A stretch of 64,000 nt of DNA, taken from contig OZ037845.1 of assembly GCA_964035575.1 (NCBI GenBank), positions 1,612,001 to 1,676,000 of the forward strand, read 5' to 3'. The notes under the pieces are model-generated. The model was given only the letters and a program-made list of their open reading frames with translations, was not told the DNA's origin and ran no database searches. Position numbers and translations under genes: made by a program. The DNA is from Rhynchopus sp. YZ270_cl-10 (taxonomy: Eukaryota). This document shows, one piece after another, positions 10,558 through 61,545 of the stretch. Numbering within the stretch: the first letter of the stretch is position 1; every line of letters begins with the position of its first letter.

Positions 10558-12639
10558 TATTTTTTTTTCAGTTACGAATCAAGACACCAAGAAGCAAGAA
10601 GGCATGCCATTAACTTGTTGTGTGCCCGTGAGTGAATCACATTATTTGCATCCGTATTATATTTTGTTGCTGCTGATTTCGTATGTCACTTTTCTTACTT
10701 TTCCGACCCCTGTTCGTGTCGAGTGTGCTATATTCACTTGACCGAATTTTATTGATTTGTTTGTATTGTATATAGACCCTCGTGTTGTCCGAGACATGGT
10801 TCTTGCTTTTCTTTTATTTTGCTCATGTTCACGTGCACACTGCGACTTGTGTATGGTCAGTGTGTGGGTAATATGCGTGTTGAATGTGGTATATGACAAC
10901 CAAGACTCGGCTAAGAGAAGGCCTTACTCAGGTCACCAGTCAGATATCAGCGGCGAACCGTTTACATGTGCCATTTGCTTGGATTGCGGTTTCTTGTGCA
11001 GAATGAATGTCTGCACAGTCGTTTGAGATCTTCGTATGAATCAACCTTTCTTTGGTAGACCTACTGACTCACAGTCAGGTAGGTATCTGTCCAGGACACA
11101 AATAATTTGTTCTCTCTTTTTACCGTTCTTGAATGAAGACGTGCAGTTGATGGGTGCAATCTAGTCAGCTTTCAGGTGTTTTCTCGCACCGTATCATTGG
11201 GAGCAAGTTCCTGGCGTGTCCTGTGTTTGCATCAACCTTTGTTGTGTGCCCACTAACCACCACGCTTGCTTTAGTGTCCCAATAGCTGTCGACTTTCCCC
11301 CCCTCCCCGGTACCTGCGTCTGCACTGCACTTTTTACATTCTTTTTGTCATGCGTCAAGGACAGACACTGCCCCTCCCGTATTTGTCACACTGTTTGCTT
11401 TTTTCGTAGTTATGTTACGTTAAGGTATTTATCTTTATCGAAAGACGACTAAGCACAACGAGGTTCGTTTTTTAGATGCGACCCAGTCATCTAACAATCT
11501 ATTTATGTCTGCGCTCCGCTGATGGTGAGGCGTTTGCACTTTCAACTCTTTATTTATTTTTGCATCCTTCCTTCATGTGACCAAGCACGCTTGGATCATC
11601 TTATTAACCCTTTTTCTTTCTTACCAGAGTAAACGAAATGGATGTGGACTGCATGGTTGGGCTCCACCCCCGGTACAGCCGGTCATTGTACCAACACTGT
11701 CACAGCGGGCTGTTGTATTTCATGGCAACTTTCTTTTGGCTGATTTTCGCTAGAGGCTCCGCCCCCCCCCCAGACCCGTTGGGTGTGCATAAGACCTCCA
11801 GCATAGTGCGCAATCTCATTATTAGCTCATCATAGTAACCACAGCTAGAGAAACGCGCATCATGCGCAACAATATGCCACGAGCATGTTTTGTTTTTGTG
11901 TTTTTTTTATATGTCGTGTGAGAGCTTGCGAGAGCTGAGAGAAAAGCTCATCCCGTTCAGAGGTGACCAAATATAGCACACTAGCGCATGATATGATGTT
12001 ATGTCTCATGATATCCGGTGATCTCATAATGGCGCGCATTGATTGTCATTTGCCACACGTGATAGATCTAGTTGGTCAGACTTAACCTGAAATTTTTCTT
12101 CTTCTTCGTTGATCCTTCCTCCTATGCTCTTACTATATTGAATGCATATGCAGGGGTCCTAAGAGTGGTAACTTTTACCACTTCCGAAGTGACCTTTTTT
12201 ATTTTTTTGAAATTCGAAGGTCACTTCGAAGTGACCTTCGAAAAGTGCCCTAAAAAGTGACCTTTTTTTTTATTTTTTGAAATCCGGTGTCACGAAGTGA
12301 CCTCGGATACTTAACATACACCGGGAGCACGTTGGAGGGTCTGGGATTTTTTTTCTTTTTTGTCAAGATCAGTGGTCTGCAGGGCGCAGGTTGCTACCAT
12401 GTACAATTTTAAGCGATTTTTTTTTTTTTTTGAAATGTTGCGTACCGTGGCTTCGCCAGAAACTTTCGTTTCAGCAAAATACGTAAGTAATTTACGGAAA
12501 CTTACGATAATTACCAACGATAGTGCCATTTTATGGCAACATTTTTTAGAAATGTTGCGTACCGTGGCTTCGCCAGGAACCAAAACGGTGACACAGACCG
12601 CTGCGAAAATTGCCTCACAAGAAAAAAATGTATCTAGTA

Positions 12640-13477
12640 TATGTGGTGTCCCGCGACCAGCCCACAATCGCCCCCCTAGAGCCCACCTGGGCCCACCTGT
12701 GCCCACCTGAACCCAATTTCACCCGATTTCGCCCGATTTCACCCGATTTCACCCGATTTCGCCCGGATTTCAAAAATTCCTTTTTTTGGGTTGGCGGTGG
12801 GGAGCTTGGGCGGGGTTTGACCAAAACCAAGAACTTGGCCATTTCGGCAAAGTGACCCCACCACAGCGCGGACGGATTCCGGAAACGCCAATCGCGGCAT
12901 GTTTTGGAGCCCACTTTTTTTCAGGGAAAATATTTGCTTCCAGATGTCGGAATTTTCCGGAAAATTTCCAGAATTAGGAAACAGCCTGGAAGAGCGGTAC
13001 TGTGTACTGTGTACTGTGTACTGTGTACTGTGTACTGTGTACTGTGTACTGTGTACTGTGTACTGTGTACTGTGTACTGTGTACTGTGTACTGTGTACTG
13101 TGTACTGTGTACTGTGTACTGTGTACTGTGTACTGTGTACTGTGTACTGTGTACTGTGTACTGTGTACTGTGTACTGTGTACTGTGTACTGTGTACTGTG
13201 TACTGTGTACTGTGTACTGTGTACTGTGTACTGTGTACTGTGTACTGTGTACTGTGTACTGTGTACAGTGAGTCACCTAAAGGGGTTCTGCTCAACGAAA
13301 GTGGCCGATTTTTTTTTTAGTTCACCCAGACCCAGCCCGGAAATCTCGAAAAGCGCGGTTTCTGGGTGTTTTACTGGGCCAAACCCTCACAGAAGCCAAA
13401 AAACCCTGTTTTTGCCCGATTTCGCCCGATTTCACCCGATTTCGCCCGGATTTCACCGGGGTTGGGGACACCCCATA
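12640..13477. mobile_element. Nested TIR element carrying a 7-mer satellite
   Basis: Imperfect TIRs tatgtggtgtcccgcgacc / ggttggggacaccccata, with subterminal (ttt)cgcccga/cacccga repeats at both ends. An internal segment recurs at ~34250-34560 and ~59818-59885. TSD uncertain (gta?). Confidence 0.5.
12997..13266. repeat. Perfect (GTACTGT)n microsatellite, ~38 copies
   Basis: Read directly from the sequence. Confidence 0.97.
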
Positions 13478-14029
13478 GTACCCTGTCCCTATGATACGGC
13501 GATCCAACGTCCAGTGTATGTCCGAGGATTTGCACCTTTTCAACTTCACTTGTGTTGTTGCCATACCGCCTCTGAGGGGGGAAAGTTTTTTTTTTTCCTC
13601 CCCAAAAAACGAGAAGTGACCTTGAAGTTACCATTTTAATTTTTTTTGAGAACAGCGTTAGGACCCCTGTGCATATGTTGAAATACTTATTTTCTTTTTT
13701 GCGCCGATTATTTTTATTTTATTTTTGTCGCAAAAGTCGGTCGGGGTCTCATATTTTCAGGAAACCCCAGCTGGCTCGACAGGACTACCATCTCTTCTTT
13801 CGGTGTAGTTTGTTGCTTTCTTTTTTATCATCGGAAAAGGACAGGCTTTTCTTTTTCACTAGACACTTTATCCTAGAGACCCCCCTACCGTAGCAAAGCT
13901 ACTTAAACAAGTTTACAGTACGTTGTTTGTGTTGTGTGTCTTTTCCCTCTGCATCTCATTTTTTTCGTTGCCTCGGTACACATCTGTTTGCATCTATTAT
14001 TCTTATTATTATCGCCCCTCCACCCTAGT

Positions 14030-14210
14030 CATACCTAGAAGGCGAATTTCGTATTCGCCCTACATTCGGATCCGAATATAGGCCGAATGTCATATTCGCC
14101 TATATTCGCCCTTTGTTCGGATCCGAATACGATCCGAATATAGGCTGGATATGGCCCAAGAATTTTCGGATCCGAATATAGGCCGAATATGTATTCGCCT
14201 TCTAGGTATG
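14030..14210. mobile_element. 181-bp MITE nested in the hAT left TIR
   Basis: TIRs catacctagaaggcgaat / attcgccttctaggtatg, internal ttcggatccgaa palindromes, flanks cctagt / cctagg. Confidence 0.8.
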
Positions 14211-14330
14211 CCTAGGCCTCCCCAACGTCTTTTAAGAAGAAGACTTCTTTACGTCTTTTACGGTCTTCTAAAATCTGGGGTTTTCAAGGATAAAAGACGT
14301 AAAAAAACTTGTTACTTAGGAAACCGTGGC

Positions 14331-20165: not shown

Positions 20166-20428
20166 TGTCTTGACAGTTACGCATCAAGACGAGGAAGCAA
20201 AAGGCACATCATTAACTTGTTGTGTGTCCGTGAGTGAATCACATTATTTGCATCCGTATTATATATTGTTGCTGCTGAATTCGTATTTCAGTTTTCTTAC
20301 TTTTCCGACCCCTGTTCGTGGCGAGTGTGCTATATTCACTTGACCGAATTTTATTGCTTTGTTTGTATTGTATATAGACCCTCGTGTTGTCCGAGACACG
20401 GTTCTTGCTTTTTTTTTTTATAGGTGAC

Positions 20429-21264
20429 CAGGGTTTTTTCTAGGATTTTTTTTTTCAGATCTGGGGGGGGACGCAAAAAAACCACCCAAAAAAATTTTTT
20501 TTTCGCAGGTGCAAGCAGGGTTTCCGCTTATCTTCATGGAAAAATTTTCCAAAACCGTGAAGATATGTCCAAAAAGGGGTCTATAGTTTTCGCGCTCCGC
20601 GCAAAAAAGCCCGTTCATTTCACGTAAATACGTGATAACGTGGGATGGTAACGAACATCAAGAACCAAACCAACCCTTTTTCTCATGTTCCACGGAACCT
20701 TCCCTCAGTACAAGAAGAAACGGCGGTCATGATATCAGAACTTTCTGGCGAAGCCACGGTACGCAACATTTCAAAAAATTGTGACCTAAAATTGAACATT
20801 TGTACAGCCAAACTATGGTAGAGGGCTGTGGTATTCCGCATAAGTTTTGAGTTGCGCCGCAGGCGCACGGTACGCTACTTTTTTATTTTTGCCCATCCCT
20901 TATTCTCACTCTTTTGTTCGGTCTGTCATGCAAAGATTGAGTGAATTGGGGGCGCGGTCTGAAACTTCACCTCGCTATATCCTCTTCACAATGATGCCAG
21001 GAAGGGGATAAGACGCGCTTCGCGTCTTATCCCCTTCCTGCCTCCCTGCCTCCCTGCCTCCCTGCCTCCCTGCCTCCCCTTTTTTTTCTGGTGCGGGTTA
21101 CGTACGTTGTGTCCCAAATGGGGGTCTGTGCGGGTGACCCCCAACCACCCCCCACATCCTTTTTTCCCAAGTCAAAATGCGTCCCCCCCCGGGGGGGGAC
21201 GCGTTTCCCCCCAAAATCTGGGGGGGGACGCCGTCCCCCCCCGCTCCCCCTAGAAAAAACCCTG
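20429..21264. mobile_element. CAGGG-terminated MITE, 5-bp TSD
   Basis: TIRs cagggttttttctagg / cctagaaaaaaccctg. TSD gtgac (alternatively CCAGG ends with TSD tga). Absent from the paralogous region near 10805. Confidence 0.85.
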
Positions 21265-22808
21265 GTGACTAAGCAGAAGAGGCTTGGAATCATCTTATAA
21301 AATTTTCTTTTATTTTGCTCATGTTCACGTGCACACTGCGACTTGTGTATGGTCAGTGTGTGGGTAATATGCGTGTTGAATGTGGTATATGACAACCAAG
21401 ACTCGGCTAAGAGAAGGCCTTACTCAGGTCACCAGTCAGATATCAGCGGCGAACCGTTTACATGTGCCATTTGCTTGGATTGCGGTTTCTTGTGCAGAAT
21501 GAATGTCTGCACAGTCGTTTGAGATCTTCGTATGAATCAACCTTTCTTTGGTAGACCTACTGACTCACAGTCAGGTAGGTATCTGTCCAGGACACAAATA
21601 ATTTGTTCTCTCTTTTTACCGTTCTTGAATGAAGACGTGCAGTTGATGGGTGCAGTCACCTTTCAGGTGTTTTCTCATGGCTCCCACACCATTGGGAGCA
21701 AGTTCCTGTGTTTGCGCTGTAGTCTTTTTTTTCTCGGTGTCTGCGTCCGCACTGCACGATTTACATTCTTATATCATTTCACTTCTGGTTGGCCATGGCG
21801 CTGTCATCACTCCCTGTTCCCGCCCCTCCACCCTCCCACAATGTTAAGCCGCTTTCGTCGCCTTTTTGCGCAGTGCGTATTTGGCGATGAAACGCAGTTT
21901 CCAATGATTCTGCTTTTCTTGCAGATGTCTTTCGCTTCTTCTATGCTGCACCCTCCCCTCTCTCCACCCTCCCAGTTGGAAGGCCAACTCGTTTGCGACA
22001 AATCAGGGGAAGTATTGTCTCAGTTGAATGCGGTAGCTTCATTTAGCTTCAACTGCGGTGTCAACAGGGACAAACACTGCCCCTCCCTTATTTGTCACGG
22101 TGCGTGCTTTTTTCGTAGTTATGTTACGTTAAGGTATTTCTATGTATCAGCAGGTGACTAAGCACTTTATGATTACCAATGTTCAAAAAATTAAAGTAAT
22201 CTATTCAGACTAAGCACAACGAGGTTCGCGTTCACCTTTTGTTAATTATTGTGTTCTGTGATGAGACGTATTCATCTTACAATCTATTTATGTCTGCGCT
22301 CCGCTGGTGGTGAGGCGTCTGCACTTTCAACTTCCCTTTATTTTTTGCATCCTTCCTTCATGTGACCAAGCTCGCTTGGGATCATCTTATAAACCCCTTT
22401 TTCTTTTTGGCCAGATCCCTTACCACGCCTCCCAGCAGATGCAAAGGGGAAAACCCCCTCTGTTCTTTATTTTACCCGCAGTTTTAGTTACGTCGTGCTT
22501 CACACGGCGTATATTTTTACATGATTCCCCTACTCCCCCAACACTGTTTTTTTTTTTTCTAAACTTCTAACTTTTGAGGACGAGCTGCCGATCTGTTATA
22601 TGGAACACTGCTGAATTCGACGCCATGCAGACTTTTTTTATACCATTTTTTTCTTGTTTTGGTACAGCATGCACATTCTTACCCCTTAGGATGGTTTGAT
22701 AGGTGGCCTCAGTTTTCCGCGCAAAAAAACACCCCTTTCCTTTTCAGACAAAAAGAGACTTTACACAACATTCTTTTTAAAAAGGCGTTTGAACTAAGAC
22801 GTTGAACG

Positions 22809-23075: not shown

Positions 23076-24660
23076 ACACACCTCAAAACCTCACATTGTA
23101 ATGCAGCATGAGTGGGCGGGTCTACCTGGAATGGTGTAGTAGGCCCCCCTATAATGCAGGAGAAGGGGAGAGACTTTTGTGTTGTCTTAAAAAGTGAGTT
23201 TTTTCTCCTGGTTGGGTGAGTGTTGCAGAAGGGGTGTATGTGGTGCGTTGCCTAATTGGTTGTATCTTCATCTTGACATGCTTCTGTGCACGGAGGTGGT
23301 GCGCGATACGTGAATTTCAATAATTTCTGATTTTTTTTCATTTTTGGGTGGACCAAGGCCACTACGGGATGGCATTGTAGGGTGGTCTCACCTATCTTGT
23401 CTTTTGCATTGCGCTGGCAAAAAGCAGACTGCTGAGGATACGTATCGAGGTGCGAAGTCTGTTCTGCAGTAATAGCCTTACGTTCGTTAGGTGGTGTAGA
23501 GAAGTGAGAGAGAGAGCTGAGAGATATATTCACCAAATTCTCGATCTTTTTGTGTCTTTTTTTTATGTAACATTGCAACAAAAAAAAAGGAGCATTTTTT
23601 TTTTTTTGTGTGATTTAGTAATACGATACGTCTTAGGCAAGAAATGCGTTTGGTTAAAAAGAGCGCATTTTTTGCCTTCATTTTTTGTATCGTTTTTTTG
23701 TGTCGTGTGTTGCGTTATGGAGAACGAGAAAGAAAATGGCTATAAATGCTTTTGGGGAGGGCTTATCTTAACTTATCTTTTTTTTATTTCGATTTTTTTG
23801 CGTTTTATTTTTGTTTTTCGCTATTGCCTTTTTTAGCACATAGCCCCTTTTCTCTCCCCCACGTATTGCCCATATATTATTTTCCCCCCAGAAGTGTGAA
23901 CCAGGCTTATTAGTTTGCCTGAATATTTTACTGGAAAAAAAAATAATTCTCCTCTTCTTTTGAGCTGACTAAGCAGAGTGTAGCTTAGAGTTCATTAGTA
24001 CCAACTTTTCTTTTTTTCTTTTTTTTTTGCTGAAACCGAAATAATCCAAAACCCCCGTGGAAAAAATAAAGTAAACCTCCTCGGATAAAAATAATTTTTA
24101 TCCTCCCCCTCCTCCTCCTCCCCCCCCCCACCATCCCCAGTTACTCACAGCAGACAGCAGCAGTATTAAAGTAGGTAAAAGCTCTTGATCGGGAGAAAAA
24201 AAAAGGCGGGAAATTTCTCTTTTTGTTCTTCTTTATTTTCTTTTCTTTTTGTGTGTGTGTGTGTTTTCATAGGTGACTAAGCATGTGAAGCTCGAGATCA
24301 TCTTACAAAAACTGTTCTTAACATTTTTGTTGATTTTTTTAAAGCAAAATGGTATCCAAATTGTATTGCTCCCAATGTTTTTCATGGGGTAAAAGATGAT
24401 TACTGTTAGCTCTTTGAAAGACAGATGGGATTGTCCATCAGCTCTCCTTTTTGATTTAAAAAAAAAAACATTGAAAAGCACGTTGTGGGGTCACGCTGAT
24501 TGATTTGTGTATTATTTTCCTTCCGGCTGATCACTGAGGAAGCATTACGCTTGGCAACCTATCTTTTCAACAACACAAAAAAAAAGGAGAGAGCATCACA
24601 GAGGCCGACATTGTTGAGTGAGAGGAATCTACCTCTCTGTGGGCAATTTTTGATACAGTG

Positions 24661-24832
24661 CAAGGTACAAGGTACAAGGTACAAGGTACAAGGTACAAGG
24701 TACAAGGTACAAGGTACAAGGTACAAGGTACAAGGTACAAGGTACAAGGTACAAGGTACAAGGTACAAGGTACAAGGTACAAGGTACAAGGTACAAGGTA
24801 CAAGGTACAAGGTACAAGGTACAAGGTACAAG
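24661..24832. repeat. Perfect (GTACAAG)n microsatellite, ~24 copies
   Basis: Read directly from the sequence. Confidence 0.97.
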
Positions 24833-24910
24833 CACCATGATTGGAGTTTTATGTTGTGTTTTTATTATTATTTTGTGTTTTTATGTACTGAGCTTTACTG
24901 TTCATCTTTA

Positions 24911-27526: not shown

Positions 27527-27539
27527 CTGAAATTTTTAT

Positions 27540-28400: not shown

Positions 28401-29049
28401 TTTTTTGGTGAGTGCTGACTTCTCAGTGCCCCATTCGCTTCGGCGTACCTGTCTCTACACTGCTCCCGAGGCGGCGGTAGAACAGTTTTGTTTTGATCAG
28501 TTGTTCGGTTTGTGCAGTTTTGATCAGTACTGGTTCTCCTCTCAATCGGTTTGGATGGACAGGGCCAGTGGGGTTTTTGTACCCATCTAGAGGGTTCTCG
28601 TGGCTGTGCGTTCCGCCCTCCCCCGCAGAAGCTGCGAGGTTGACGGCGGATGCCGTGTTTACAGGTTTCTCTCTTTTCCCACCTTCCCTCCCTTTTCTCC
28701 CCCTTAAACTCCATACTCTGCTACCTTTCCGCTACGCGGTCCCTTTGGGCTATGCTGCGGTCAACGAAAAAAGACTCAGTAGTAGATTAGTGAGGACAAA
28801 TCAAGTGGCAAAATGTTAGTTTAGTTTTTTTTGAGCATTTATTTTGAAATCGATGCTCTCTTTTTCTCTCCCTGTTGTGTACGCTATATGGCACATTCAT
28901 CTTTTTTAAAGTTTTCTTCTTCTTCTCATTTGTTTTCAAAGACATGCATGCTACCCTTAGTAGGGTCACATTCATTCTTTTCAGTGCTTATGCCTAGACA
29001 TTTGCACTATCCATTTATTTAGTTTTTCAAAGGTGACGGTCAACTGTTG

Positions 29050-29176
29050 CCACCTGATTTTTACTCCGCGTATAGGCGCGTAAAGGTGTGTATAGGGCCG
29101 TATAGGTCCGTAAAGGCATATACGGACCGTTCGTACACGCCTTTACGCGCCTATACGCGGGGTAAAAATCAGGTGG
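29050..29176. mobile_element. 127-bp palindromic MITE, 5-bp TSD tgttg
   Basis: ccacctgattttta...taaaaatcaggtgg near-complete fold-back. TSD at 29045-29049 and 29177-29181. Confidence 0.85.
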
Positions 29177-32060
29177 TGTTGGGTCATCTTCAATTTTCTT
29201 GTTTTATTTTGTCAGTTTTGTGTAATCCTTTTTTGCGACAGTAAGGCTAAAAGCCAAAAAGACACTACCAAGGTAGTGTGCTCTATTATGTGATGGAGTT
29301 CCTCCATTGTGAGTCCATTCACAGAAAAACGAAACAAAAAAAAAAAACGCATTGGGTAGCGAGTGACCCAGTATAATTCAATAGCTGTTCTTGCCAGTTT
29401 CTTTTTATTATTATTTGTTCTGTTCTTAAAATGGGACATTTTTTTTCTTTTTTCTTTGCGTGAATTTGCAACAAAACACAATGCGTGATTTCTGGTTTTG
29501 CACCTTTTTTTTTTTTTTTTTCTTTCTTCTTTTCTTCAAAGTAAAGATGTGCAATGAATACGTCTCCTCCCTGTGAGACGCATATTCATTTCACATTTCT
29601 TTTAGGATAGCTAAGCTACCTTCTGAGGCTTAGCTTCATCTCCATTTTATAATGCGACTAAGCACGAGAGGCTTAGGATCATCTTATAAACTTTTCCTTT
29701 ATTTTTTTTTTCCTCTTTTTTTCAGATGTGCACATGAGACTTCATCCTTAAAACACATAATTATTTTGCGTGATCAAGACAGGTAATGGGGTGGCGCCTG
29801 GTGGTTATTCCGGTGTAGAATGAAAAATAAAACCACCAGCCACTCCACAAGGTATCTCGTCTTATTTGTTGCACCTCAACAAAAAAAAACTACAAATCAC
29901 TATTTTCTGATAGTTCTGCGAGAAGGCGTTGACGACTTCGTTCCCCTTTTAGTTTCTAGATATTGGCTAAATACGGGAGGCTTGGGCTGGGTTCAAACGT
30001 GGTACGCGGCTTTTACGTAGTACATACGTAGTAGTTACATCGTATTGTGAAAACTTTTCTCTTGTGCTTTCATCCGGATGGCTGGCATCGTACGTGGGTC
30101 AGTCGGAGGTGCCTGCATTAATAACTTCACTTTCTCTTGTTTTCCCTTCTCTCCACCCATTTGTGCAAACAATTCTCGTGGAAGGGGGGGGCGAAGATGA
30201 GAGAGAGGGATCAGAGTCATCGCTGCTTTAAATTTTGCGCTCCAAAAATATTTAAAAACCAGATTTCAAAAAAAAAAAAAAAAAGGGAACTAATACAAAA
30301 ACCCACCTCAAAGTGGGTAATTTTCGAGAACGGGGCGATCTTTCAATTTATCTTATCAATTTTGTGTGTGTGTGTGTTTTTTTTTTTCTCTCTTTTTTTT
30401 TGGAGAAAAAAATCTTTCAGGGTGAGCACTACAAGGCTTTTGCTCATCTTCATCGCCAAAAAAAGATTTTTTTTTGGCAATAAATGTTTTTGTGGGCTTT
30501 TTATTTTATTATGAAAGTGTCCCACAATGTGTCCAGATATGCATAAATGCATCGTTTTTGTACCCAACATTACCCCACTCTCTTCCACCCCCTTTTTTTA
30601 CTGTGATTTCCTCTTATATGTTTTTTTTGTCCAAGGTACACCTTTTTTTCGTACCCTGTTAGTAAACACGTAGTATTTGACAAAATGCTCGAGACCCTCG
30701 TGAAGAGTGGAAGCGAACAACAAACAACCTTAAATTTTCCTCTTCCCCGTTTTCAGCCTTTTGAGCAACAAGCAAAGAGTAACGAGTCTCTCGAGCATTT
30801 TTTTTTTTGTATGGCAAATAGATAAAAATGACAGTGGAGAGTGCACAACTGTGGCAACACAACCGAGGCAACTACACTACTCCAACAATTTATCAAAAAA
30901 AACATGGAGATCACGCACAAGCAAGGTGACTACACGTTGTCAATTTATCAAAAACAAATGAAATGGCGATTATCTTGCTGTCTCTGTAGAGAGACGTGAA
31001 GAGAGGGACGATTTTTTTTTTGTTCTTTTTTAAAAAATATTTGAAATTGGATTTCCGATTGTTGTGCTTTTTTTTTTTTACATAGAGAATGTAGTGTGAG
31101 TTAACCTCTTCTCTCCCCCCCTGCCCCCCTTTAACCCCCCTGGTTCTCGGTCCAGAGCTCTTCCTGCTAGTTCTGTTGCTGTCTTTGCTGTGCAAACACT
31201 TTCCCCTCATTTTCCCCTCCCTTTTGAATACGTAAAAAAAACAAAACAAAACAAAAATAGTGGAATGGTGAACAACACCCCCCGGATGTGCGGCTACCAG
31301 AGACACACATTTTCCAGATGTAAACCACGAAATGGATTGTAGGACTGCATGGTTGGGTGTCCACCCCCCGGTACAGCCGGTCATTGTACCAAGGTACACT
31401 GTGTTCACGAGAGGGCTTCTGGATTTCAACTCTACTTTTTCCTCCAGATGTCATATGAGTGATATGAGTGAGTCACACCCCTCTGAGGTGAGCGTGGTCC
31501 GTCCTTTTCAGGAGTGTTTTTTTTTCTCTCTTCTTCTTCGGTACTTCAGGTTCTTTTTGTTTGCCTTTTTTTTTTAGGTGACTGAGCACTGTGGCTTAGG
31601 GTTGTCTTACAAACTTTATCAAAAAAAAAAAAAAAGACTACTCCGGGGTTCGGTAACCCTCGGAGCGTCAGTGCACTGCATTCCCTGTGCCTTGCACTAC
31701 CAACTTCACCCTTTTTCTTTTTGTTTCACATCTATTGCAAAGCTCTAACTCCTTCTATTTGCTTTAAAAAAAGGATCTTGAAGAAAAATCTGTGGCTGCT
31801 ATCCTGTAGTCGGAAAATCAAACAATTTTTTTTTTGTTTCTCATCAAACAGTTTTTCGCCGTGAATTTTGTTTCTGGGGTTCCATAACCCGCGGAGAACC
31901 AGTGCCCGCGTCTGCCGATGAACGGTGAGTCGTTTTCACTTTCAACTTTTCTTTGGTTTGACCCAATCTGATCTTCGCGTAGGACGGTGGGTAGCGTACC
32001 AACTAAACAAAAGACGAACGGGGTTTTTATTATTTTTGTTTTTTGTTTCTCTTTCATCAA

Positions 32061-35100: not shown

Positions 35101-36739
35101 CGGTTGTGAACCGCCTCCGTTCTCTTACGGTACGGACCACTCACTTTTCTTCCCTTTTGCCTAAGCTCGACTGAGATGTGTTTTAGCACATCTCAACTCC
35201 TTTAGTTCTGATGTAATCATTCAATTCTTTGGATAGCAGCCTTTTGTGGCATGATGCTGTCTTTGTAGGATTGTTTGATTGTCATTACGCGGGGATAGGG
35301 AGAGATGGAGAAGGTAAAAAGAGAAATGATACAGTCAGTCGTCTTCAAAACTGCAAAGAAAAAGAAGAAAAAAAGTAAAAAAAATAATGGGGGAAAAAAT
35401 ACCAATACCAATCGTGTATCCCTCCACTGTCCTCAAAAATCTGTTTTTAGTTCTGGTTTTTTCCCCTCAACTTTTAGTGAATCTCCTTTTTTACACCCCC
35501 CTTTTTTTTTAATCCCCCTTTTGATGCATTCGTCCTGCGTTTGCATATTTTAGTGTTTTTTTGTTTTGTTTTGTTTCAGCAAATAAAGAATGTTCTCTGC
35601 TCCTTCCTGTTCCCAGCGCCCCTCTTTTAGTTTCGAATCAGCTCTGCAATAACAGAGGGCCTTTTTTTTTAGATGATGGCAGATGAACATGCGCGTAAGG
35701 TATATTCATCTTCCAAGGTCCAAGGCTTGGTACACATTTAACGCCCGATGTAGGTTTTTATTTCCCCCTAAAAAAAATAGTTGTACTTAGCGTGACATCT
35801 GATTTGTACCCTCAGTTTGTTGATGTTTACCGGTGTTTGCCGGCCGGTCATGGCAAACACCGGGAAAAACTCAGGGTCCAAATTAGGTGATAATCTGATG
35901 AAGCTGGAGGAGAAAAGATTTTTTTAAAACTCCAGCGTATTCCGGCGAGATAACGATAGTGATACATGATGTATGTGTGCACGAGAGGCACGATTCATCT
36001 TACAAGCAAGTTTCCCTTTTTGCTTTTTTTTTGTTTTTCCTTTGTGTGCCATTAGACGACGAACCTTTGCAAAAATTTCTCGCCGTTTTTTTTTCTTCTT
36101 CTCGCACGAAACTCCCCCCATTTTTAGATTGACCAAACAAAACACTCACTGCTTAGGTTCATCTTATCAACATTTTCTCCCCCCCACTTATTGATTTTGT
36201 GCACGGCAATGCACACATTTTTTTTTCATTTTTACTTTTTCAATTTCCCTCTTTTTCCTTTTCAAATTCTCTTCAACCTTCAAAAAATTGTGCTTCACTC
36301 TATAGCACAGAGGGTTTTTCCCCCTCTCAACTGTTTTTTTCCTTTTTTTCTTTTTTTGTTTTCGTTTCTTTCAACGAAGACAGGCAAATAAACAAACAAA
36401 TAACAAGGACATTTGACAGTGGCTGAGAAAGAGGATAAGTCGTAATCTCATACAAAGTAACGCGCCCTTCCTCTCCAACTCCACGTCTACAAAACTATCA
36501 AGCAAAATTAAACAGAGCACAAAAGCACTTTCAAAACATACAAAAAACATTTTCAAACCCCCCTATCAACTGTTGGTTGTTTTCCCCACAAACCAAAGAT
36601 TTCTCCCGACGTTTTCCCTATAGGTACCTCATGAGTTTTCCCTCATGTTCAAAGCCTTTCATCCCCCACCCACGAAACAAACCCCATTATATGCAAAAAC
36701 CCTCTTGTGAACCACTGGCTGGGGTGGTTGTTTACGACT

Positions 36740-40700: not shown

Positions 40701-42241
40701 AATGGTTTTCGTTTTATTCTGAATGATTAAAATTAATCTGCGAACGTCGAGCTGAAAGAACGCAAAGAAGAGCGGGGCGGTTGGGTAATAACAATACCAC
40801 TGCAAAAAGCCCCCACTTTCCACACACAAAAAAAAAGGAGCTGATTGCAAAGGGGTTCCGTCAATAATACCCCCTCCTCTTTAGTCTTGTCTTCTTTTTA
40901 GTCGATTTTTTTTTTTTGTCTGTTGAGTGTTTTTAGGCGAGTCGCAGGCAAACAGAAACTCACATAGGTAACAACCCTGTTTTTTTTATAGCGAACTTTT
41001 TACCACAACATTTTTTTTTCTCTTCAACTTCAACCTGTTCTTCATGACGGCCTTGTTACCAGTGTAACAAGGTCACCGTCTATTTCCCCTTCCCCTCTCC
41101 CGAACGACTTCTCTTTTTCTTCTGCTCGTTTGCAAAGAGATGTAAAGGTTCTGATGGAGATTTTGCTATCATTTGGACATTTTAGTCGCACACTATTTCA
41201 ATCATTCGATCCGAAAGAGCCCCGATATTTCGGTTTGTATTATTTCCTTACAACTGTAAGCGTACCGCTTCTGTTGTATACAAACAAAAAACAAAAAAAA
41301 CGATTAAAAAAACGAAAAATGCGTCTTTTGTTATATCGACAAAAAAAACGCATATCCCCTTTAAGGTGACTATGCAAAGCATAGTTTCATCTTCCCAACT
41401 TTTTCCCCTTTAGTTGCTGTTTTAGTTTATCTTTTTTGAGTACCATTTTGGTAACACCAAAACACTGCCTCCTTCCCCCCCCCCCCCCCAGAAGTTGTAT
41501 TTTTTTTATTGTGATTCACACCTTTCCCAAAGCCTTTTCCTTGCTTTTGCTTTTGTTGCTGAGGTTCCTGAGCATGAAGCTGTGCCTCATTTATGCCAAC
41601 AAAAGGTATCATTCTGTTTCGAAGTGCAGGCATTGTGCCTCATGAGATCTCCCCTCTTCTTTCGAAACAGTCCACTACCCCACACCCCGCCCACGGCCTC
41701 AGATGCTAGCGTTGTTGATACTTTTGCCGCTCATTATTTGTCTTTACGGAATCTGTGCTTGCAGCCTCAAAGGCACTTGCACTTACAACTTCCAGTTTCT
41801 TTCTGACCGCACCCCCACCCCATATCCCCACAAATTCCTCTATATTCTTTTGTTCAGCTGCATGAAATAACAGCGGGTACAAAACATAACAATAACATTG
41901 TGTCAGATGAGGGTCCTAATGTGTCTCATCTCTGTCACACTCATGGATGAGGTGTGCCCTCTGTGCGTATCCTAGCCCGTTTCTAAGATGTGCAGGCAGA
42001 GGCATGTTCATCTTACAAGTGTTTTTCTTTTTTTTTTTTGGTGGGTGACAATTGAGTCGTCAGAGTACAGGTGGGTGATTGTTGCTGCAACAAAAGAGCT
42101 TCCCCGTACTCAGATGCAAACATAACAAAGAAAAGTGAATAATTAAAAAAAAAAAGCCCTCCCGCATCCCCGTTGGTGTCCACCACAGCCCTATTCTGCA
42201 TACCCCCTCCATCACACCCTCCAGATACTTCAGCGCCAACA

Positions 42242-45583: not shown

Positions 45584-46788
45584 GTGTTTTGACTTTGTCC
45601 CTGCCCTGCTCCGTCCTTTGGATGATTGAATATGCCCTCCCACCTTCACCTTCACATTCCCATCCCGATCACCCATTTCAGATATTGGCACACCTGCTGT
45701 GTCACGACTCTGAATTGCCCCAGAATAGGCCTGACTGAAAATGTCTACGTTTGAGACGTGCAATATCTACGCAGAAGGAAGTGACTCAAATCTGCACCTT
45801 TCGTGCATCTTTTTTGGGTGAACCCTATTAACGCGGAGTTGCGACGTCACTGTCATCAGATGCAGGCTTCAGTAAGTACTTATTCGCTTTCATTTTATTG
45901 TCATTATTTTTTTTGTTTTGTTTCCCCCCTCTTCGCATGCCTTTATCATTTTACGGAGTGGGCACCGTGCACACAGTCTGAGTGATGATTTTCTACAATG
46001 CCTTGGGTGCCTTGGCCCTGAACATTGCATTTTTTTTTTTTTGAGTACGCGAGTCTTTGGGTACTCTTATTCAAACCCCCTTTTTTCATCAGATGTAAAC
46101 CACGAAATGGATGTACCAAAGTACACTGTTCACAAGAGGGCTTTACCTTTTTTTTTTTTTTTTTTTTTTTTGCTCGACTGATGTGCACGACCCTGTCTCC
46201 TTAGTTTTTGTTTATAGAAAAGAACGCGTTTAAAATACTCATTTTTTCATGAATTCATTGGACAGATTGCAATAACAATTTGAATACGTACACATTACGC
46301 CACATGCACAGTGTTGTGTGTCGTTATGTTGTTCAAATGTTTTGCACCTTTCTGAAGCTTCCTCCTACTCATATTCATTAAAGTCGTATATGAGACGCGA
46401 ATCTTTTCTCGGTGAGCATGAGAGTCTTGTGTTCATCTTACCTGCGGTTTTTTTTATTTTTATTTGTTGCCTTTTATGAATTTATTCCTTTAGTAGAAGC
46501 CATTCCGGATGTTATTTACTCCAGACAACGCGCTTCGATGTTGCAGAAAACAGATTTGAAAACGATGTGTGCTAGAATCATGCATTTTCCAAACCTTTTT
46601 CACTGAATACTAAAAAAGCAACGCACCCCATCCCCCTCATGATTTTCCCTACCAATTTCCCCGATTTTCCCCGAACCCAACTCAACCTTCCCCCCTAAAT
46701 TACGCCTTCTCCTTCTCCTTCTTCCATCCATAGTACAGAGGGCTACGGCCAAGAGAGGGCATTGACTGCCCCTTAGCAACACTACAAG

Positions 46789-49863: not shown

Positions 49864-51659
49864 CGAAGACGCTTTGAGGTAGAGCGGAGTTAGGTTTGAG
49901 AATGGAAAGGGGTGAAAATGGGGTGGGAAGGGGCGAGGGGAAGAGTTGTGTGTTTTTTCTTTCTTTTTATGATGTGTGCACCAGCGGCACATTCATCTTT
50001 GTTTTCGTTATTTTGTGATGCCACGTGTACCATTTTGTTATGTGTTCTCCCCCCCCGCTTCGCTGTGTTCGTTGGTCGAACATAAGCAAAAAACGTTTAA
50101 AAAACACACACACACACACACACTAACATCGATCCTAGAAATTGCCACACCCGCCCTACCACAGGGCAGCTGTGTGTGGCAACGTTCCCTGCGTCCCGTG
50201 AGGTGTCTTCACGTTATTAACTTCCCCTTTTAGATGGGTGTGCAAGAAAAGCATATTCCATCAAGATTTTCTTTCGGAATATTTGCTGGCGGCGGAATGG
50301 CTCCATCTTTCATTCTTTTTTGGACGCTAAACCCTACCTTCACCAACCCCATTACCTCGGAACACTTTCTCCTTCCCCCCGCCCTTGAAACAGCATTTCA
50401 TCTAGCTTTTGTGCTTTCCCCCCCTCCCGTCTTGAGATTCTCTCTTGTGTGGCTTGGTTTTGTCTTTATATGTCTTGTGGTTCATGAGCCACGAAGTTCG
50501 CGTAGAACGAAAAATAAGGAAAAGAAAAAAATCTGGTAGAGTATTGTTTTGCGTTTTGTGTTGCGTTGTCAGCAGAGTAACACAATGGCACTTGTCATGA
50601 CATGGTAAACACATGTTGCAAGCACAGTAACAAACATAAAGCGTTAACGAGAACTTCTTGTCAAATGTGCTTGTCATGTCAGGACAGGTGTCGTCGTGAA
50701 GTTGAATAAGGAGCGGTGGGGGTGTGGTCTGGACGTGGGGTGCCAAACATAAACCCCTTCTTTGAGTGCCTGCGTCCTCTGGTGCCCTGTGAGGCGTTTG
50801 CATTTTCAACTTTCCCCCCTTTTTGTGCCAACACGTTGTTAAACCAACGACCAAAAAGGCAGCAAAAACAAAAACAAAATAATCTTGGGACAGTGACAAC
50901 TGTGGGGGGTAGCAATAGAAGGGTTTGCTACCTCTTTTTTTTGTGTGTGGATTATGGATGGCACAGAATGGAGAAGGCGAGGGAGGAGGGGGGGGACGCC
51001 CACTGAAGGTGGCGTTTGAGACAAAAAAACGCAAACAAAAACGAGACAAAGCATTTTCAGAAAAAAAAAACAAAAAAACGTCACCAAAAAAGGACGGAAA
51101 AAAATGCGACAGTTATAACAACCAAAACAAAGCACCGTTGTCGACCACATCATTCTGCATACACATTCCTCTTCCTGCAGCCCGCTCCTTTCTGTGACTC
51201 AAGCGTGCTCCCACACGATAACGATAGTGGTACGTACATATGTGTACACGAGAGTGACATTCATCTTGTTTCTTTCCAAGATGACTCAACACGAGACGCT
51301 TGGGTTCTGTTAATTGAGCAATCAACGAAAAAGCATTTTTTTCCTTTTACTTCTATGAGAGTTACTATTTACTATTACTATTCTGCCGCCACTTGACACC
51401 ACAGTGCCACAACGCTACTAAGATTGCACCACCACACCACACCAAGGGCCATATTCTGCGCAAGAATTACCCTCACTAGGCATCCTCCACACCACACCAC
51501 GTACCTTGCAGAGATCCAACGGGTTGCAACACATCCACATACGCTCCTATACCACCCACACCCCTACTCCCACACCCCTTCCCTCCCCTTCGCCTCTCCA
51601 CTTCTCACTTCCCACCCTTCCCTCCCCCAACCCCTCTGCCCCTCTGCCCCCCTAAATGA

Positions 51660-55510: not shown

Positions 55511-55560
55511 TAAGGTGACTAAGCACGAGAGGCTTAGGATCATCTTATAAACTTTTCTTT
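55511..55560 (+). repeat. Dispersed ~45-nt hairpin element (consensus copy)
   Basis: taaggtga ctaagc acgagag gcttag ga tcatctta taaacttttcttt. Identical at 57780 and near-identical at 29656 and 61495. Confidence 0.9.
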
Positions 55561-56448: not shown

Positions 56449-58028
56449 ATGTCCGATGAAAAGGGTCAGAAGACAAACACGCAGGCATTCATGTCTGCGC
56501 TGGCGCAGTTCTGCTTCTCGTCTGTGGGGATGATGATAGGGAACAAAATGGCCATGGACTACCTGCGCGACCCTGTGACGGAGAAGGCACTCCCCAGTAC
56601 CCTTGTTGTGATCCAAGTGCTCGGCACGCTGTTGCTCCTCTTCGTCTTCCGTGAAAAGATCGACCACGACAAACTCACCAAAGAAACGGCCGTCTCCTGG
56701 GCACCCATAGTGACGCTCTTCGCAGGCATGGTGTACACATCGGCAAAGACCTTCCAGTACGTCCACGTCTCGTTTGTGATCATTGTGCGGAATGTTGGTG
56801 CAATTATCACAACATGTATGTCATCTGGATGATATAAAAACCACAACACATCAAAACAGTTGTCGAGTACTTCGTGCGGCACACTACCGTGAACGTCCAA
56901 ATCCTTGCCTCGGAACTCATTATTGGTATGTAACAGAAATGTTGCGGGGATACTTCAAGTTTCCCTGGCTCCCTTTTGCATTTTTTTTTTCTACAGTTCT
57001 CGGAACGGTGCTGTACAGCCACGGTGGTGTGACGTACTTCAAGGACTTCTGGCCAGGGATGTTCTGGTGTCTCGTGAACGTTGTCTGCCAGACGCTTTAC
57101 GGTGTGACCTTGAAGTGGAAGATGGACAACGACGAGAACATCAAGGACATGTCGAAGTATGTGTCCCTCCTCTCCTCCTCTCCCCCTCTTCCCTCACCTC
57201 GGGGTCTTCACTCCCGCAACATTCCCCTTCACCCACCCTCAGGTACACAATGTCGCTGTACAACAACGCACTGTGCCTGCCGTACCTGGTGGTGGTCGCA
57301 GTGTTGTCGGGCGAGCCGCAGCAGTACGAGAAGATGCTGCCGCACGTACCGACCACGGGGTGGGTTGTGATTGCAGCGACGTGCGTGATCGGGTTCATGA
57401 TCAGCACTGCTGGGTTTGGCCTGCAGCGTCTTGTCTCTGCCACGACGTTCCTCGTCATCAACAACATGACCAAGGTGCTGAACATCATCCTCGGTGTCGT
57501 CTTCCTCCACGACAAGCTCCCAGGCAAGATGAGCGTCATTGGGTGCGCCATCAGCCTGGGGGGTGGCTTCTGGTACTCCTTTGAGATGATGCGGGTATGT
57601 CTCTCCTATCTTCTCCTCTATCTCTTTGCATTCTTTTCTGGTCTGGTAATTTTTGTGATGTCGCATTTCCTCATATGGGTCACTCACACTAGGTCATGCC
57701 ACTGCGGCATCTGGGTATACCTTTCTGGTGTTTTCTACTTTCATCTGCCTGCATCAACAAAACTACAATTTTCTTTAACTAAGGTGACTAAGCACGAGAG
57801 GCTTAGGATCATCTTATAAACTTTTCTTTCTTTTTAGGATGTCTCACAAAATGCTTACATTCATCCACTATTATTCATCACAAACTTTCATATCAAAACA
57901 AACAGCTGAGAGACAAGAAGAAGGAGGAAGTGCCCAGCCCCACCTCCATCCGCACCCACTCCGACTCCCGAAACGACGAGCTCAACGTTAGAGTTTCTTC
58001 TAGCCGTACCCTAACCGAAGACAAATAG
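56449..58028 (+). CDS. Nucleotide-sugar transporter (GDP-mannose transporter, LPG2/VRG4/GONST-like), 5 exons
   Basis: Multi-TM protein with SVGMMIGNK, MSLYNN and SATTFLVINNMTK. Exons 56449-56815, 56860-56925, 56997-57156, 57243-57594 and 57906-58028. Substrate is inferred. Confidence 0.85.
57780..57830 (+). repeat. Dispersed hairpin element, intronic copy
   Basis: Identical to the 55511 copy. Lies in the last intron of the transporter gene. Confidence 0.9.
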
Positions 58029-59523
58029 ACAGCCATCACATGGCACCCCCCCCTCCTGTCTTCTTCTGTTTCTCCCCACGAAAAACAACACAACAAAAAA
58101 AAATATAGTGAGCTTCATCCTCTGGGTGTCTACACTAATTATACAAACCGAGTTTTCAAAAAAAAAATATGTATGGGTGGTCAACAGCACGACTGTGATC
58201 ACGAAGGGTTTTCTTGTTCAAGGATAACGCCTGTTTGGCGATGGTTTGGAGGTGAAGAGTCAGCGGGGTGATGTCACCAAAGCCGTCCTATGACCAAAAC
58301 CTACAGGGAAGAGGGAGGGGGGGGTCAGGGCGAGGGTGGGGGGGGAAAGTCAGGGAATGGTATGGGGTTTATTGGTCTTTCAATAAATATTAAGAAAAGG
58401 CGTCATAATTGCCTTGTAAGAAACAACGGCAGGGTCTTTTTTCTGTTTGTGTTAATTGTTCTTTTTACACCGTTTTCAAAAAAAAAAAAAATGTGCTTTT
58501 TTTTAGGCAAACAATTTCTACTCCACTGATCTAATCGAGTAAAAATATGGTGGACTCAACGGAGGTCAGGTCCAGCGGGCAAAATGAAGAAATCAGCAAA
58601 ATGGTGCCTTTGTGAGGGATTTAAATGCAAAAGGGGACTATTTTTTGGAGGGGTCACAACTGGGGACGTGATTGTGACGTGAAATTTGTTGTCAAAAAAA
58701 GGGGACTAAATTTGGGTAGGTTTTGTGGTTTGCAGGTTCAGAATTTTGCCTAACTCGCACAATTTTTTTTTTGGAAACGGTGTTGATTCTTTTTAGGAGG
58801 GCTTCGATATGGTCTACCGCGTACTTTTTTTCCGGTGACTAAGTACAGAGAGGCTTAGATTCATCTTACAAAAAAATCTCTCTTTTTTCTTCTTTTTTTT
58901 CTCTAAAAACCCCTGGGAAAATGGTCAAATCAGGCCATTTCCTGTGAGGGGTTTATGTATGGTTTTGCTTTTTTCCTCTTTTCTTCTGCAATTTTCTTCG
59001 AATAGGGGGGTTGTTTGGGGCAAGAACTCCTTGAAAAGCATATTTTTCATTGAATTTCTTCGTTTTTTTCTCCATTTTTTCCCCCTCTTTCATTTTTCAC
59101 ATTTTGCAACGGAAATGATATTGGATGTATCGTGGTATAGTGCGTCCTTTTGTACTTTCGAAGAAAGTTGGGAACATTTTTTGATCCCTATACCTATACC
59201 TTACCTGTGTTATCAATTTATTGAGTGCATATGTGGTGTTCCTGAAACCCCTTGTAAAAGACATGTCAATATAGGCCCCCTCCAGAACACCAATACATAG
59301 AAATACTTTCTGTTCTTTGATGGTAAAGTACACGCAACGAATTCATTCATTCTTTTTTTGTTCTCGAAGAACACTTCGCCTGCATAAGGCTTTCGTGTGG
59401 ACGAGACTGTTGCCCAAACAAGAAAGCCTCTCTCCCACAGCAACACACTTTTAAGATGTTAAACTGACAGACTTGTAGAGAAAATTGGCACGATTTAACG
59501 TTACTAGTAAAAAGTAACAAAAT

Positions 59524-59991
59524 TGGTGCTTCCCGGGGGGTGTGCATTTCACAAATTTTCACAAAATGTGACAAGTTTTCACAAATTTTCACAACACGAA
59601 AACCGCTACAAAATTGTGAAGGCTGGTGAAAAATTGTGAAAAAATGTGAAAAGTTGTGAATAGTTGTGAAAAGTTGTGAATTGATTTTTTTTTTTTGTGT
59701 GCTTTTTTTTTGGGCGGGGTGGTGACCCACCCATTGAGGGGTACGCTGGGATTCACAAGATAGAACGTGATGTGGTGTACCTGTGTACCTGTGTACTGTG
59801 TGATGTGCGGAAATGACGAGAACTTGTCCATTTCGGCAAATTGACCCCACCACTGGCCGTACGGATTCCGGAAATGCAAATGCCGGCGTTTAAGAGCTTC
59901 ACCAACGAGAGAAAAAAGGGTAGTGAAAAGTTGTGAAAAGTTGTGAATTGAATTGAAAATTTGTGAAATGCATACCCCCCGGGAAGCACCA
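59524..59991. mobile_element. MITE, probable 5-bp TSD aaaat
   Basis: ~37-bp TIRs tggtgcttcccggggggtgtgcatttcacaaattttca / tgaaaatttgtgaaatgcataccccccgggaagcacca, with internal ttgtgaa repeats. Confidence 0.8.
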
Positions 59992-61494
59992 AAAATTAAA
60001 ATGAAAAAAATGCAAAAAATGCAAACATTGTGTCAGATGATGAGACATAACCAATCTGACCAGATCAAAATTACCCCTTTCGAGATGAGCAAATGAAACA
60101 CAAAATATTGACAGTGGAGATTGCACGACTGTGGCAACACAACCGAGGCAACTACACTACTCCAACAATTTATCAAATAAAAGCGAAGACTGCAACAGAT
60201 GCGCCAATACGAATCTTAGGGATTTTGACACCATTTTTTTTTTGTCATTCCTAACACGTTTGCATATCACACAGCAAACAACCCCGTGTGCAGGCTTATG
60301 TTATCAAACCACTATGTCTCAGCACTATGCGTGTAGAAGCGCAGATCGCTCTCTCAGAAAATATCCCCCCCTTTTTTCAGTGCTTGCACATTCCAACTTT
60401 TCACTTTACGTTAAAAAGACTGATCACAGCGTAGCTTCGAGTTTCACCAGTCTTTATCAGGTGACTAAGCATGTTGCCGTGCTTAGATTCCAAGGTTTCT
60501 TCTAATGAAGTACAGTTTGGATTGTGTTTTTATTGTGCCGTTTTTGCTCCTGTACGTCACGTTCTATTTGTTGTGACATTCGACAAATAAAATGGGGCAC
60601 CCCTTTTAAAAAAAAAAACAAAATATTGTTCAAAGACGGCACGTTGTTGATGTTAGCTCCTGGAGATAAGCTCTTCTTAAAGGAAAAGACGTCTTCGTGC
60701 ATGTGTCTGTCAAAAAAGAAAAAAAAATGCATGAGGATACTGGACTGCATCATTGCAACCGGTTTTCAAGAAAAAAACAAACAAACAACAACAACAACAA
60801 CAAAATCAATACTGCTGTTCTACTGTTGAAAACGCTTGAATCGGCTTTTCTTATCAGTAGATGTGTGCGGTATGCAACAAAAACAACAAAACGACAAAAA
60901 ACAAAAGCAAAGAAAAACAGGGGGAAGGAGTTTCCCCACATGGAATGTTTTATTTTTTTTTTAATTTTTTTTTTAATAAAAAAGCCCCTAAAAAACACCC
61001 CAGTCCATTTGCTGTCACTAACCAAAAAGGGTAACAACAACAAAGGTTTGGCCCTTTTCTCCCCCATTAAATTTTATATTCGTCTTTTTTTAACTCAAAA
61101 AAAACGCCCAAAAAAAAAGTAGAACGAAACATAACAACAGCTAAAACGCGAAGAAACCATACAAGCACCGTTTCCCTCCAAATTTAGAAATCTTTACGCA
61201 ACAACAAAAAAGCCCCCTCCTCCCTACTCCCTACTCCCTACTCCCCACTTTGAAATCCCCCCTTCCCCATCTACCATAAGCCCAAACCCGTCGGGGAGTC
61301 CTTGATACCTCATGACTGTGCACGAGCAACCTTTTGTTCATCATAGTGTTGACACCCGAGGGACGAACACCACCCTTTATTGCTGTACTTTCGTGTCCGA
61401 TGCCTGCTATGACTACCATTTTTCATCATCCCTGACAACAAACTTGTGGAAGCCAGCGCAGCGTGATGCTGATGTTGTGCGATAACGAATATGA

Positions 61495-61545
61495 TAAGGT
61501 GACTAAGCACAAGAGGCTTAGGGTCATCTTATAAACTTTTCTTTC
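61495..61545 (+). repeat. Dispersed hairpin element
   Basis: taaggtgactaagcacaagaggcttagggtcatcttataaacttttctttc. Confidence 0.88.

Follow-up and report, generated by a model that had tools for sequence, protein, structure and literature searches.

A probable minimal mobile element of the non-autonomous kind: a hairpin repeat of about 42 nt confined to one strand of a 64-kb stretch of Rhynchopus DNA

The locus and its hairpin repeat

The stretch of DNA analysed here (the window) comprises 64,000 nucleotides of contig OZ037845.1 from Rhynchopus sp. YZ270_cl-10 (positions 1,612,001 to 1,676,000 of the forward strand). Every recognisable host gene in the window lies on the + strand i.e. three CAP-domain genes, a beta-adaptin gene (best named match in Diplonema papillatum, 60% identity), a TPR/SET-like gene and a transporter-like gene. 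By this beta-adaptin match the host is a diplonemid other than D. papillatum. The host introns read GTATG...CAG with C/A-rich ends, similar introns having been described for Diplonemidae (PMC12621601), and in D. papillatum the genes are arranged in arrays of a single direction that are probably transcribed together (PMC10161547); papers are cited by their PubMed Central (PMC) identifiers. Dispersed through the window is a hairpin repeat of 41-42 nt, AAGGTGA-CTAAGC-loop-GCTTAG-NN-TCATCTT-AYAAAC, which is the subject of this analysis and is likely to be a minimal non-autonomous mobile element.

That the repeat exists is confirmed. Run over the window with filters off, a covariance model built from 18 copies gave 19 matches at E<1e-4, all on the + strand, of which 18 were the training rows and the sole match from outside the training set was that at 46406. 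Relaxing the threshold to E=10 gave 39 matches, 35 on the + strand and four on the - strand; three of these four coincide with the reverse side of + copies, and the remaining one scored 10.5 bits (E 5.2). All 29 nhmmer matches to E=10, obtained with 13 seed copies, were on the + strand, and model-free k-mer counts (+ to -) in non-coding DNA were 17:0 for TCATCTTA and 12:0 for GACTAAG. An earlier note on this DNA had claimed at least 15 dispersed copies in the sense orientation only, and both claims stand: all 18 of its coordinates hold a copy or half-copy, 16 of them being among the 19 model matches and the other two being interrupted copies (20421/21265 and 29030), while three copies beyond its list also pass the model (30416, 36123 and 51275). 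We call copies by the coordinates of that note (e.g. 55511, 57780), from which the model boundaries can be shifted by a few nt. The exact hairpin pattern had no matches in metagenome and viral contigs, and Rfam gave none at gathering score and none of relevance at E<=5 within 20000-42200.

None of the 19 copies lies in coding DNA (P 1e-4), the coding mask covering 38% of the window and being approximate, with the exon joins of the TPR/SET-like gene out of frame and the stop codon ahead of copy 55511 provisional. The distance of the copies to stop codons or splice acceptors is not fixed; copies cluster side by side, and other elements have inserted into some of them.

Evidence for insertion

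The 3' regions of the CAP-domain genes are paralogous, and only one of them carries the hairpin. The filled site (20421..21302, +; 3' half 52 bits) was compared with its empty paralogue near 10807, a T-rich target at 10790..10825 (+), and the flanks were found to be identical at 221/240 and 397/411 positions (92-97%); a third paralogue near 6361, which is more distant, is also free of the hairpin. The empty site already has the T tract that lies behind the copy, and 11 Ts stand in front of the copy. The TTTT tail that the earlier note had included in its consensus is therefore at least partly target DNA. The 11 Ts on the left are compatible with insertion into T-rich DNA without duplication and also with a slipped duplication of 9-11 nt. 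The filled copy is interrupted in its turn by another insertion, an inverted-repeat element of 835 bp (20430-21264) that has inverted ends of 16 bp (CAGGG...CCCTG), GTGAC on both sides and a 3-5-bp duplication; ends like those of this element also occur near 3337-4180.

Copies 55511 and 57780 are identical at 42/42 nt and have unrelated flanks. The first (55512..55552, +, 69.6 bits) is a young full copy of the consensus type between the TPR/SET-like and transporter-like genes, and the second (57781..57821, +, 65.8 bits), also young and complete, lies within a GT-AG intron of 311 nt (57595-57905). A third young full copy (61496..61536, +, 62.7 bits), identical to 55511 at 40/42 nt, lies about 50 nt ahead of a likely splice acceptor identified by eye, and a further young copy (29651..29691, +, 61.4 bits) directly follows an older hairpin variant (29604-29644).

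The best direct repeats around the copies are 1-9 nt long over 18 sites, with several copies having repeats of 5-9 nt. Two ideas about the ends were rejected: an antisense poly(A) retroposon would fit the sole empty site but not copies that have no 5' T run (57780, 61495), and apparent 5' truncations proved to be substitutions. The hairpin is a discrete insertion into T-rich non-coding DNA, and mobility of the element as such is very likely.

The remaining copies are also on the + strand. They include a copy with a 15-nt loop and TTTTC on both sides (33122..33170, 52.2 bits), a copy at 58832..58873 (51.5 bits), a copy with a CTATGC/GCATAG stem, a 3-nt loop and a flanking 9-nt direct repeat TCCCCTTTA (41363..41399, 49.3 bits), a copy with three derived G-U pairs (31575..31614, 47.6 bits) and one in which the inner stem is partly broken (24270..24310, 45.6 bits). 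Two paralogues stem from the same insertion event, i.e. a copy with a CCAAGC/GCTTGG stem and a 2-nt loop (22359..22394, 45.5 bits) and that called 11577 (11574..11608, 45.2 bits). Lower scores were obtained for a copy at 23962..24005 (38.7 bits), a decayed copy in which the 5' arm occurs twice (39564..39612, 38.4 bits), two adjoining variants, namely the 3' hairpin of a ~75-nt family followed by a decayed copy (51236..51316, 37.2 bits), and a copy with an extended inner stem that has lost its 3' arm (60458..60496, 30.5 bits). Two more decayed copies lie outside the earlier list (36126..36171, 41.2 bits; 30419..30456, 30.3 bits). The divergent copy that was not in the training set (46409..46445, 28.2 bits, E 5.5e-5) has fold energies of -13.1 vs -5.2 kcal/mol, and another divergent copy, read by eye and carrying no model score, has a palindromic element of ~127 bp in its loop (29029..29193).

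Abundance in contigs from public runs

Contigs from four of six listed public runs were aligned to 56150-58060 only i.e. the region around copy 57780. The aligned records numbered 8830 in run X4, 5610 in X5, 3322 in X6 and 187 in X1, and depth was piled on the two bins that contain the element (57750-57877). More than 1000 contigs in each of X4, X5 and X6 match only in part. Among the rows listed (there are 275 more), the best-supported loose ends fall at 57780-57782 and 57825-57835 with a T-rich consensus, TTTTC being the commonest sequence before AAGG. The element contigs have unrelated flanks that are T-rich on both sides, and head-to-tail joints between elements (tandems) were found in X4, X5 and X6.

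Summed depth on the element was 1.54 million in X4, vs ~420-710 in most flanking bins, and 508,000 in X5, vs ~126-207. This excess of 2000-4000 times over the flanks is not a copy number and is read as an order of magnitude only; the genome-wide copy number is likely of the order of a few thousand.

A spliced contig from X6 skips four GT..AG introns on the + strand, including the 311-nt intron with copy 57780, and the direction of transcription is thereby fixed for that gene. X6 behaves as RNA, no run being on record as such: its depth is zero in part of the 57780 intron, yet it has its 3322 element contigs and retains the element with long flanks. The 187 element contigs of X1 come with nearly no cover of that gene, and we draw no cross-species claim from them.

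Fold and covariation

The hairpin fold proposed in the earlier note was confirmed, with -14.5 kcal/mol (z -5.0) on the + strand against -9.2 kcal/mol on the - strand. RNA folding prefers the + strand in 23/26 copies (mean -2.9 kcal/mol) and DNA folding does so weakly (19/26 copies, mean -0.6 kcal/mol).

Two further claims of the note, that the stems show compensatory changes and that G-U pairs imply RNA structure, did not survive. Covariation did not exceed the control in our 18 sequences, a set of low power: two of 14 pairs had changed on both sides, as they did in 124/500 shuffles, and the covariation score was reached in 87/500 shuffles. Copies 11577 and 22362 belong to a single duplicated block and, as paralogous duplicates, represent one compensatory event and not two, so that the double-changed stems (11577/22362 and 41362) amount to two events. 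Both accompany a loop shrunk to 2-3 nt, and fold-back template switching could also yield double-changed stems with shrunken loops. Derived wobble-type changes, with the ancestral G-T pair left out, were balanced between G-U and A-C (13:12) i.e. there was no excess of G-U. With this balance the dispersed copies give no sign, at the low power of 18 rows, of selection to fold on the + strand, and they drift as if neutral. Of the paired positions, only the one ancestral G-T pair, present in 14/17 rows, favours the + strand.

Strand lock and other short families

All 19 model copies lie on the transcribed strand. T runs in the window favour the + strand by about 60:40, and models of target composition gave an expected + share of 0.47-0.69 (0.52-0.67 at score thresholds), under which 19-20 of 19-20 copies on the + strand has a P of about 1e-3 or less. 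As the expected share does not exceed 0.69, the asymmetry of T tracts is insufficient to explain the strand lock.

Eight other repeat families, chosen by eye from a self-BLAST and counted with their paralogous and tandem copies, served as a control set. Six of the eight occur in one orientation only (26/26 hits at E<0.01), including an A-tailed family and the 75-nt family; the other two are mixed (6 on the + strand and 3 on the - strand), and two further self-BLAST pairs also occur in both orientations. Since six other short families are equally locked, the lock is a trait of a class of short repeats in this window and not of the hairpin alone. The ~75-nt family (35927..36003, also 51194-51272, +; weaker variants at 41985 and 49970) has at its end a related hairpin, which shares the ACGAGAG loop and the TTCATCTT arm and differs in the inner stem. 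The five further locked families, of 55-115 nt, lie at (i) 30828, 38675, 60106 and 38598, (ii) 30062, 33455, 37767 and 40569, (iii) 11621, 31311, 32763 and 46088, (iv) 12816, 34250, 34425, 34638 and 59812 and (v) 31873, 32866, 50765, 11509, 22300 and 31643. One of these five has an A tail, and hairpins that end in AAC and pyrimidines are formed by several of them. An end of AAC plus a pyrimidine run is shared by several locked families, the motif being found 50:14 on the + and - strands with about ten occurrences from the hairpin element. The window also holds long palindromic or inverted-repeat elements (29050-29176 and 32060-32185; 35826 and 40455; 36740-36875; 14024-14216; 59523-59992) that resemble miniature inverted-repeat transposable elements (MITEs), and two of these families occur in both orientations.

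Other features of the window

The region 1-20165 is occupied by three tandem genes, each with two CAP domains and long mucin-like Thr/Ala/Pro repeats (45-nt period), the first of which ends in a likely membrane anchor. An open reading frame (ORF) at 42243-45583 probably starts with a signal peptide and contains many Cys-rich repeats of 39 amino acids that are nearly identical, with no Pfam match in that frame. About 14 kb (28400-42200) contain no recognisable protein gene and are dense in nested short repeats, and long microsatellites of 7-mers are present at 12995-13270 (TGTGTAC-type) and 24660-24835 (TACAAGG-type). A 5.8S rRNA-like fragment on the - strand (34879-34993, E 9.4e-5) is below the gathering score; D. 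papillatum is reported to scatter pieces of rRNA (PMC10161547).

At 25625-28420 there is a DIRS/TATE-type ORF for a reverse transcriptase (RT) with RNaseH, 45-56% identical to RT or RT-recombinase proteins of D. papillatum. A likely splice acceptor lies ahead of it, and behind it come five units of ~100 nt, each of three hairpins, which end in GAATGG, AAC and a T tract; by eye, the ORF is enclosed by a direct repeat of 18 bp (near 25576 and 28755). The idea that these units are like hepatitis delta virus was dropped, Rfam giving it no support.

Comparison with known elements

The hairpin acts like a non-autonomous interspersed element and, by the features compared, is not a member of any family tested, namely short interspersed nuclear elements (SINEs), MITEs, HINEs, SIDERs, H/ACA RNAs and introners. 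The earlier note had drawn an analogy with the SIDERs of Leishmania. Like SIDER1 and SIDER2, the element is euglenozoan, non-coding, dispersed in polycistronic clusters and sense-biased (PMC2689281). SIDERs, however, are retroposons in a degenerate state that measure several hundred nt, with a consensus that runs past position 545, and are sense in a ratio of about 4:1 with antisense copies enriched in spacers (PMC2689281), whereas the element is young, has a single hairpin, is sense in 19/19 copies and, at 41-42 nt, is too short for a SIDER and shorter than the 79-nt ingi/SIDER signature itself. The analogy is good for the sense bias only, and a regulatory role is not supported here.

Stringent long interspersed nuclear elements (LINEs) and their SINEs bear stem-loop 3' tails (PMC3747384), and the element resembles SINEs with such tails in being non-autonomous, with a stem-loop beside a short tail and many near-identical copies. 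In contrast to these SINEs it has no tRNA, 7SL or 5S head, no spaced A and B boxes and no constant poly(A), and would be the tail alone. A tRNA search of the element found none. An A-box-like 12-mer with one mismatch was present in 2/5 copies tested, and the best B-box, with 2-3 mismatches, starts 22 nt after it.

Trypanosomes and Euglena have H/ACA-like (AGA) RNAs with a single hairpin, and the element is similar to these in its hairpin, its A(C/T)A triplet with 3 nt to the end and its sense-only occurrence (PMC2613932). It differs from them in that its box is ATA or ACA and never AGA, in having no pseudouridylation pocket and in being 42 nt and not ~70 nt long (PMC2613932). At 27 sites the triplet after TCATCTT is ATA in 7, ACA in 6 and AGA in none, and the insertion ends 3 nt past the ATA/ACA triplet. 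No pocket of 5-11 nt was found between stem I and stem II of the element, only a 2-nt 3' bulge. Bacterial repetitive extragenic palindromic (REP) sequences and the GC clusters of yeast mitochondria likewise form imperfect hairpins (20-60 bp), are dispersed and are mobile in trans. The element is likened to these by description only, and unlike them is nuclear and eukaryotic, with T-rich flanks.

No description of the element was found in a literature search that had subscription papers outside its scope. Its motifs are absent from seven supplements of PMC10161547; Additional file 1 of that paper (repeats, untranslated regions and structural RNAs), which was outside the scope, may bear on novelty.

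Discussion

The interpretation of the hairpin starts from what was observed directly i.e. the empty paralogue, the identical copies in unrelated flanks, the sharp ends, the T-rich flanks, the tandems, the exclusion from coding DNA and the strand lock. We favour a minimal non-autonomous mobile element that spreads via an RNA copy, is strand-locked and has a few thousand copies, and we judge the chances of this reading being right in full to be about even. The earlier note had suggested a micro-retroposon: mobility is supported by the empty paralogue, the identical copies in unrelated flanks and the thousands of contigs with sharp ends, and the RNA route is our best guess only. We favour that route on the grounds that RNA folding prefers the + strand in most copies, that six other short families, one of them A-tailed, are equally locked, that the RNA-like X6 has thousands of element contigs despite its zero depth in part of the 57780 intron and that there are precedents in the sense bias of SIDERs (PMC2689281) and the stem-loop tails of stringent LINEs and SINEs (PMC3747384).

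In the mechanism that we propose, host read-through transcripts would supply a U-tract, the hairpin and a second U-tract, and a promoter would not be needed. A borrowed non-LTR reverse transcriptase could bind the stem-loop, as stringent LINEs bind 3' tails, and prime at a nicked A/T tract through pairing between tail and target; the second junction would then be closed in the upstream T-tract. Pairing in T/A tracts at both junctions would give the variable Ts and the tandems, without a promoter. As the asymmetry of the target alone is insufficient, a second step is needed for the lock, which may be access to one strand coupled to transcription or to the fork, or loss of antisense copies. RNA interference (RNAi) is a candidate route for such loss, and an RNAi pathway has been indicated for D. 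papillatum (PMC10161547). Dispersed copies would afterwards decay neutrally, with structure likely kept in source copies only.

Several points weigh against this reading. A target duplication was not established (flank permutation p=0.096, in a test that is blind to a fixed target motif), and neither ragged 5' truncation nor a constant poly(A) tail was found among the copies, the young ones having only 2-7 A and T tracts on both sides. The best-supported loose ends among the rows listed lie within 3 nt of each other i.e. the ends are fixed, and a rolling-circle DNA element would account just as well for such ends, for the T-rich targets and for the tandems. No empty allele at 57780 was seen in the aligned run contigs, and the window itself may have been assembled from these runs, which are then not independent. 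A search made without the whole genome found no partner LINE or partner enzyme. The orientation comes from one window with one gene cluster and 18 independent insertions, and the control families were picked by eye and include paralogous and tandem copies.

The strongest alternative, in our view unlikely, is a mini-element of the rolling-circle, single-stranded DNA type (Helitron/Helentron-type HUH), in which the hairpin would fold on the exposed non-template strand or the lagging-strand template and be pasted into T tracts of the same strand. This would account directly for the strand lock and for the fixed ends and head-to-tail tandems, and agrees with a T-rich target that gained extra Ts, without a proven duplication, at the sole empty/filled pair. 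Non-autonomous Helentrons (HINE/DINE-1), which the element may resemble in these respects, enter T-rich DNA with no clear duplication, have variable terminal Ts and contain a palindrome (PMC4067079), and there are Helitron-like ORFs in D. papillatum (PMC10161547). However, the element is a single nested hairpin, strand-locked, with neither the 12-15-bp subterminal inverted repeats 38-60 bp from the 3' end and separate palindrome of HINEs nor TC...CTRR ends. DNA folding, moreover, barely prefers the + strand, and an A-tailed family shows an equal lock.

We consider it improbable that the hairpin is a host-selected cis-regulatory RNA stem-loop of untranslated regions or pre-mRNA that was propagated by gene conversion and is retained in sense as the orientation in which it functions. 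In its favour are the sense-only copies, the strong + fold and the thousands of element contigs in the RNA-like X6. The earlier note had raised a cis-regulatory role as one possibility; it is not supported here, given the lack of a fixed place relative to genes, copy 57780 in an intron that is spliced out and drift that looks neutral, with covariation no better than in shuffles and no excess of G-U over A-C changes. Interruption of copies by other elements also argues against it, as does the fact that, of three paralogous sites, one alone has recently gained the hairpin.

A tiny DDE cut-and-paste MITE with inverted ends of 7-8 bp, the antisense copies of which were purged later, is about as improbable. 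The element has inverted termini (AAGGTGA/TCATCTT), a variable interior and fixed ends, and like MITEs and the introner elements of Amoebophrya it has short inverted ends that form a hairpin and short direct repeats at some copies (PMC7789003). In contrast to both it is asymmetric with a tail on one side, is never found in coding exons, is not spliced as a unit and occurs in one orientation. Its termini are not symmetric: the arms of 7-8 bp have a conserved G-T mismatch (14/17 rows) and an AYAAAC tail on one side only. No constant length of duplication is apparent among the direct repeats. DDE MITEs are expected in both orientations, as palindromic and inverted-repeat families of this window are and the hairpin element is not.

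Less probable still is a non-autonomous derivative of the DIRS/TATE-type tyrosine-recombinase retroelement to which the RT at 25625-27526 belongs. The relatives of this RT are Diplonema RT and RT-recombinase proteins, and the five tandem units 3' of it are hairpins, most of which resemble the element in ending in AAAC(C)TTT, and have 16 nt in common with variant 49970; however, a profile of the tandem units matches a hairpin variant at only E 2.8, so that the link is not significant, and eight distant RT loci have no such units or hairpins. Finally, an introner or non-canonical paired-end intron spliced from RNA is very improbable and already largely refuted, for although the element has paired ends, an AG|GTGA start and sense-only copies, and hemistasiid diplonemids have paired-end introns (PMC12621601), no copy of 19 is in coding DNA, the downstream AG is not fixed, host introns read GTATG...CAG and the RNA-like X6 retains the element with long flanks.

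Returning to the RNA-copied element, a wider proposal can be made tentatively, although we think it rather unlikely to hold as a whole: the hairpin may belong to a new class of promoter-less micro-elements, each a bare stem-loop (42 nt here) that moves from U-tract to T-tract, coupled to transcription and always in sense in polycistronic clusters. Unrelated short families with a hairpin, AAC and a pyrimidine 3' end would share this route, seeding thousands of transcripts with one RNA structure open to co-option by the host as a regulon.

The hairpin is a real, young, very small and probably high-copy element with a strand lock beyond what target composition gives. If the copy estimate holds, it would be unusually small for a mobile element of the nucleus that reaches thousands of copies, in a host lineage that is abundant, marine and little studied and that likely regulates its genes post-transcriptionally. 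The all-or-none lock would make it testable whether, in polycistronic genomes, sense is the orientation in which short elements land or merely that in which they survive; SIDERs, which are old, cannot separate landing from survival, whereas a young family with identical copies can. One RNA structure placed in many transcripts would also be the raw material from which regulons of the SIDER type are thought to arise.

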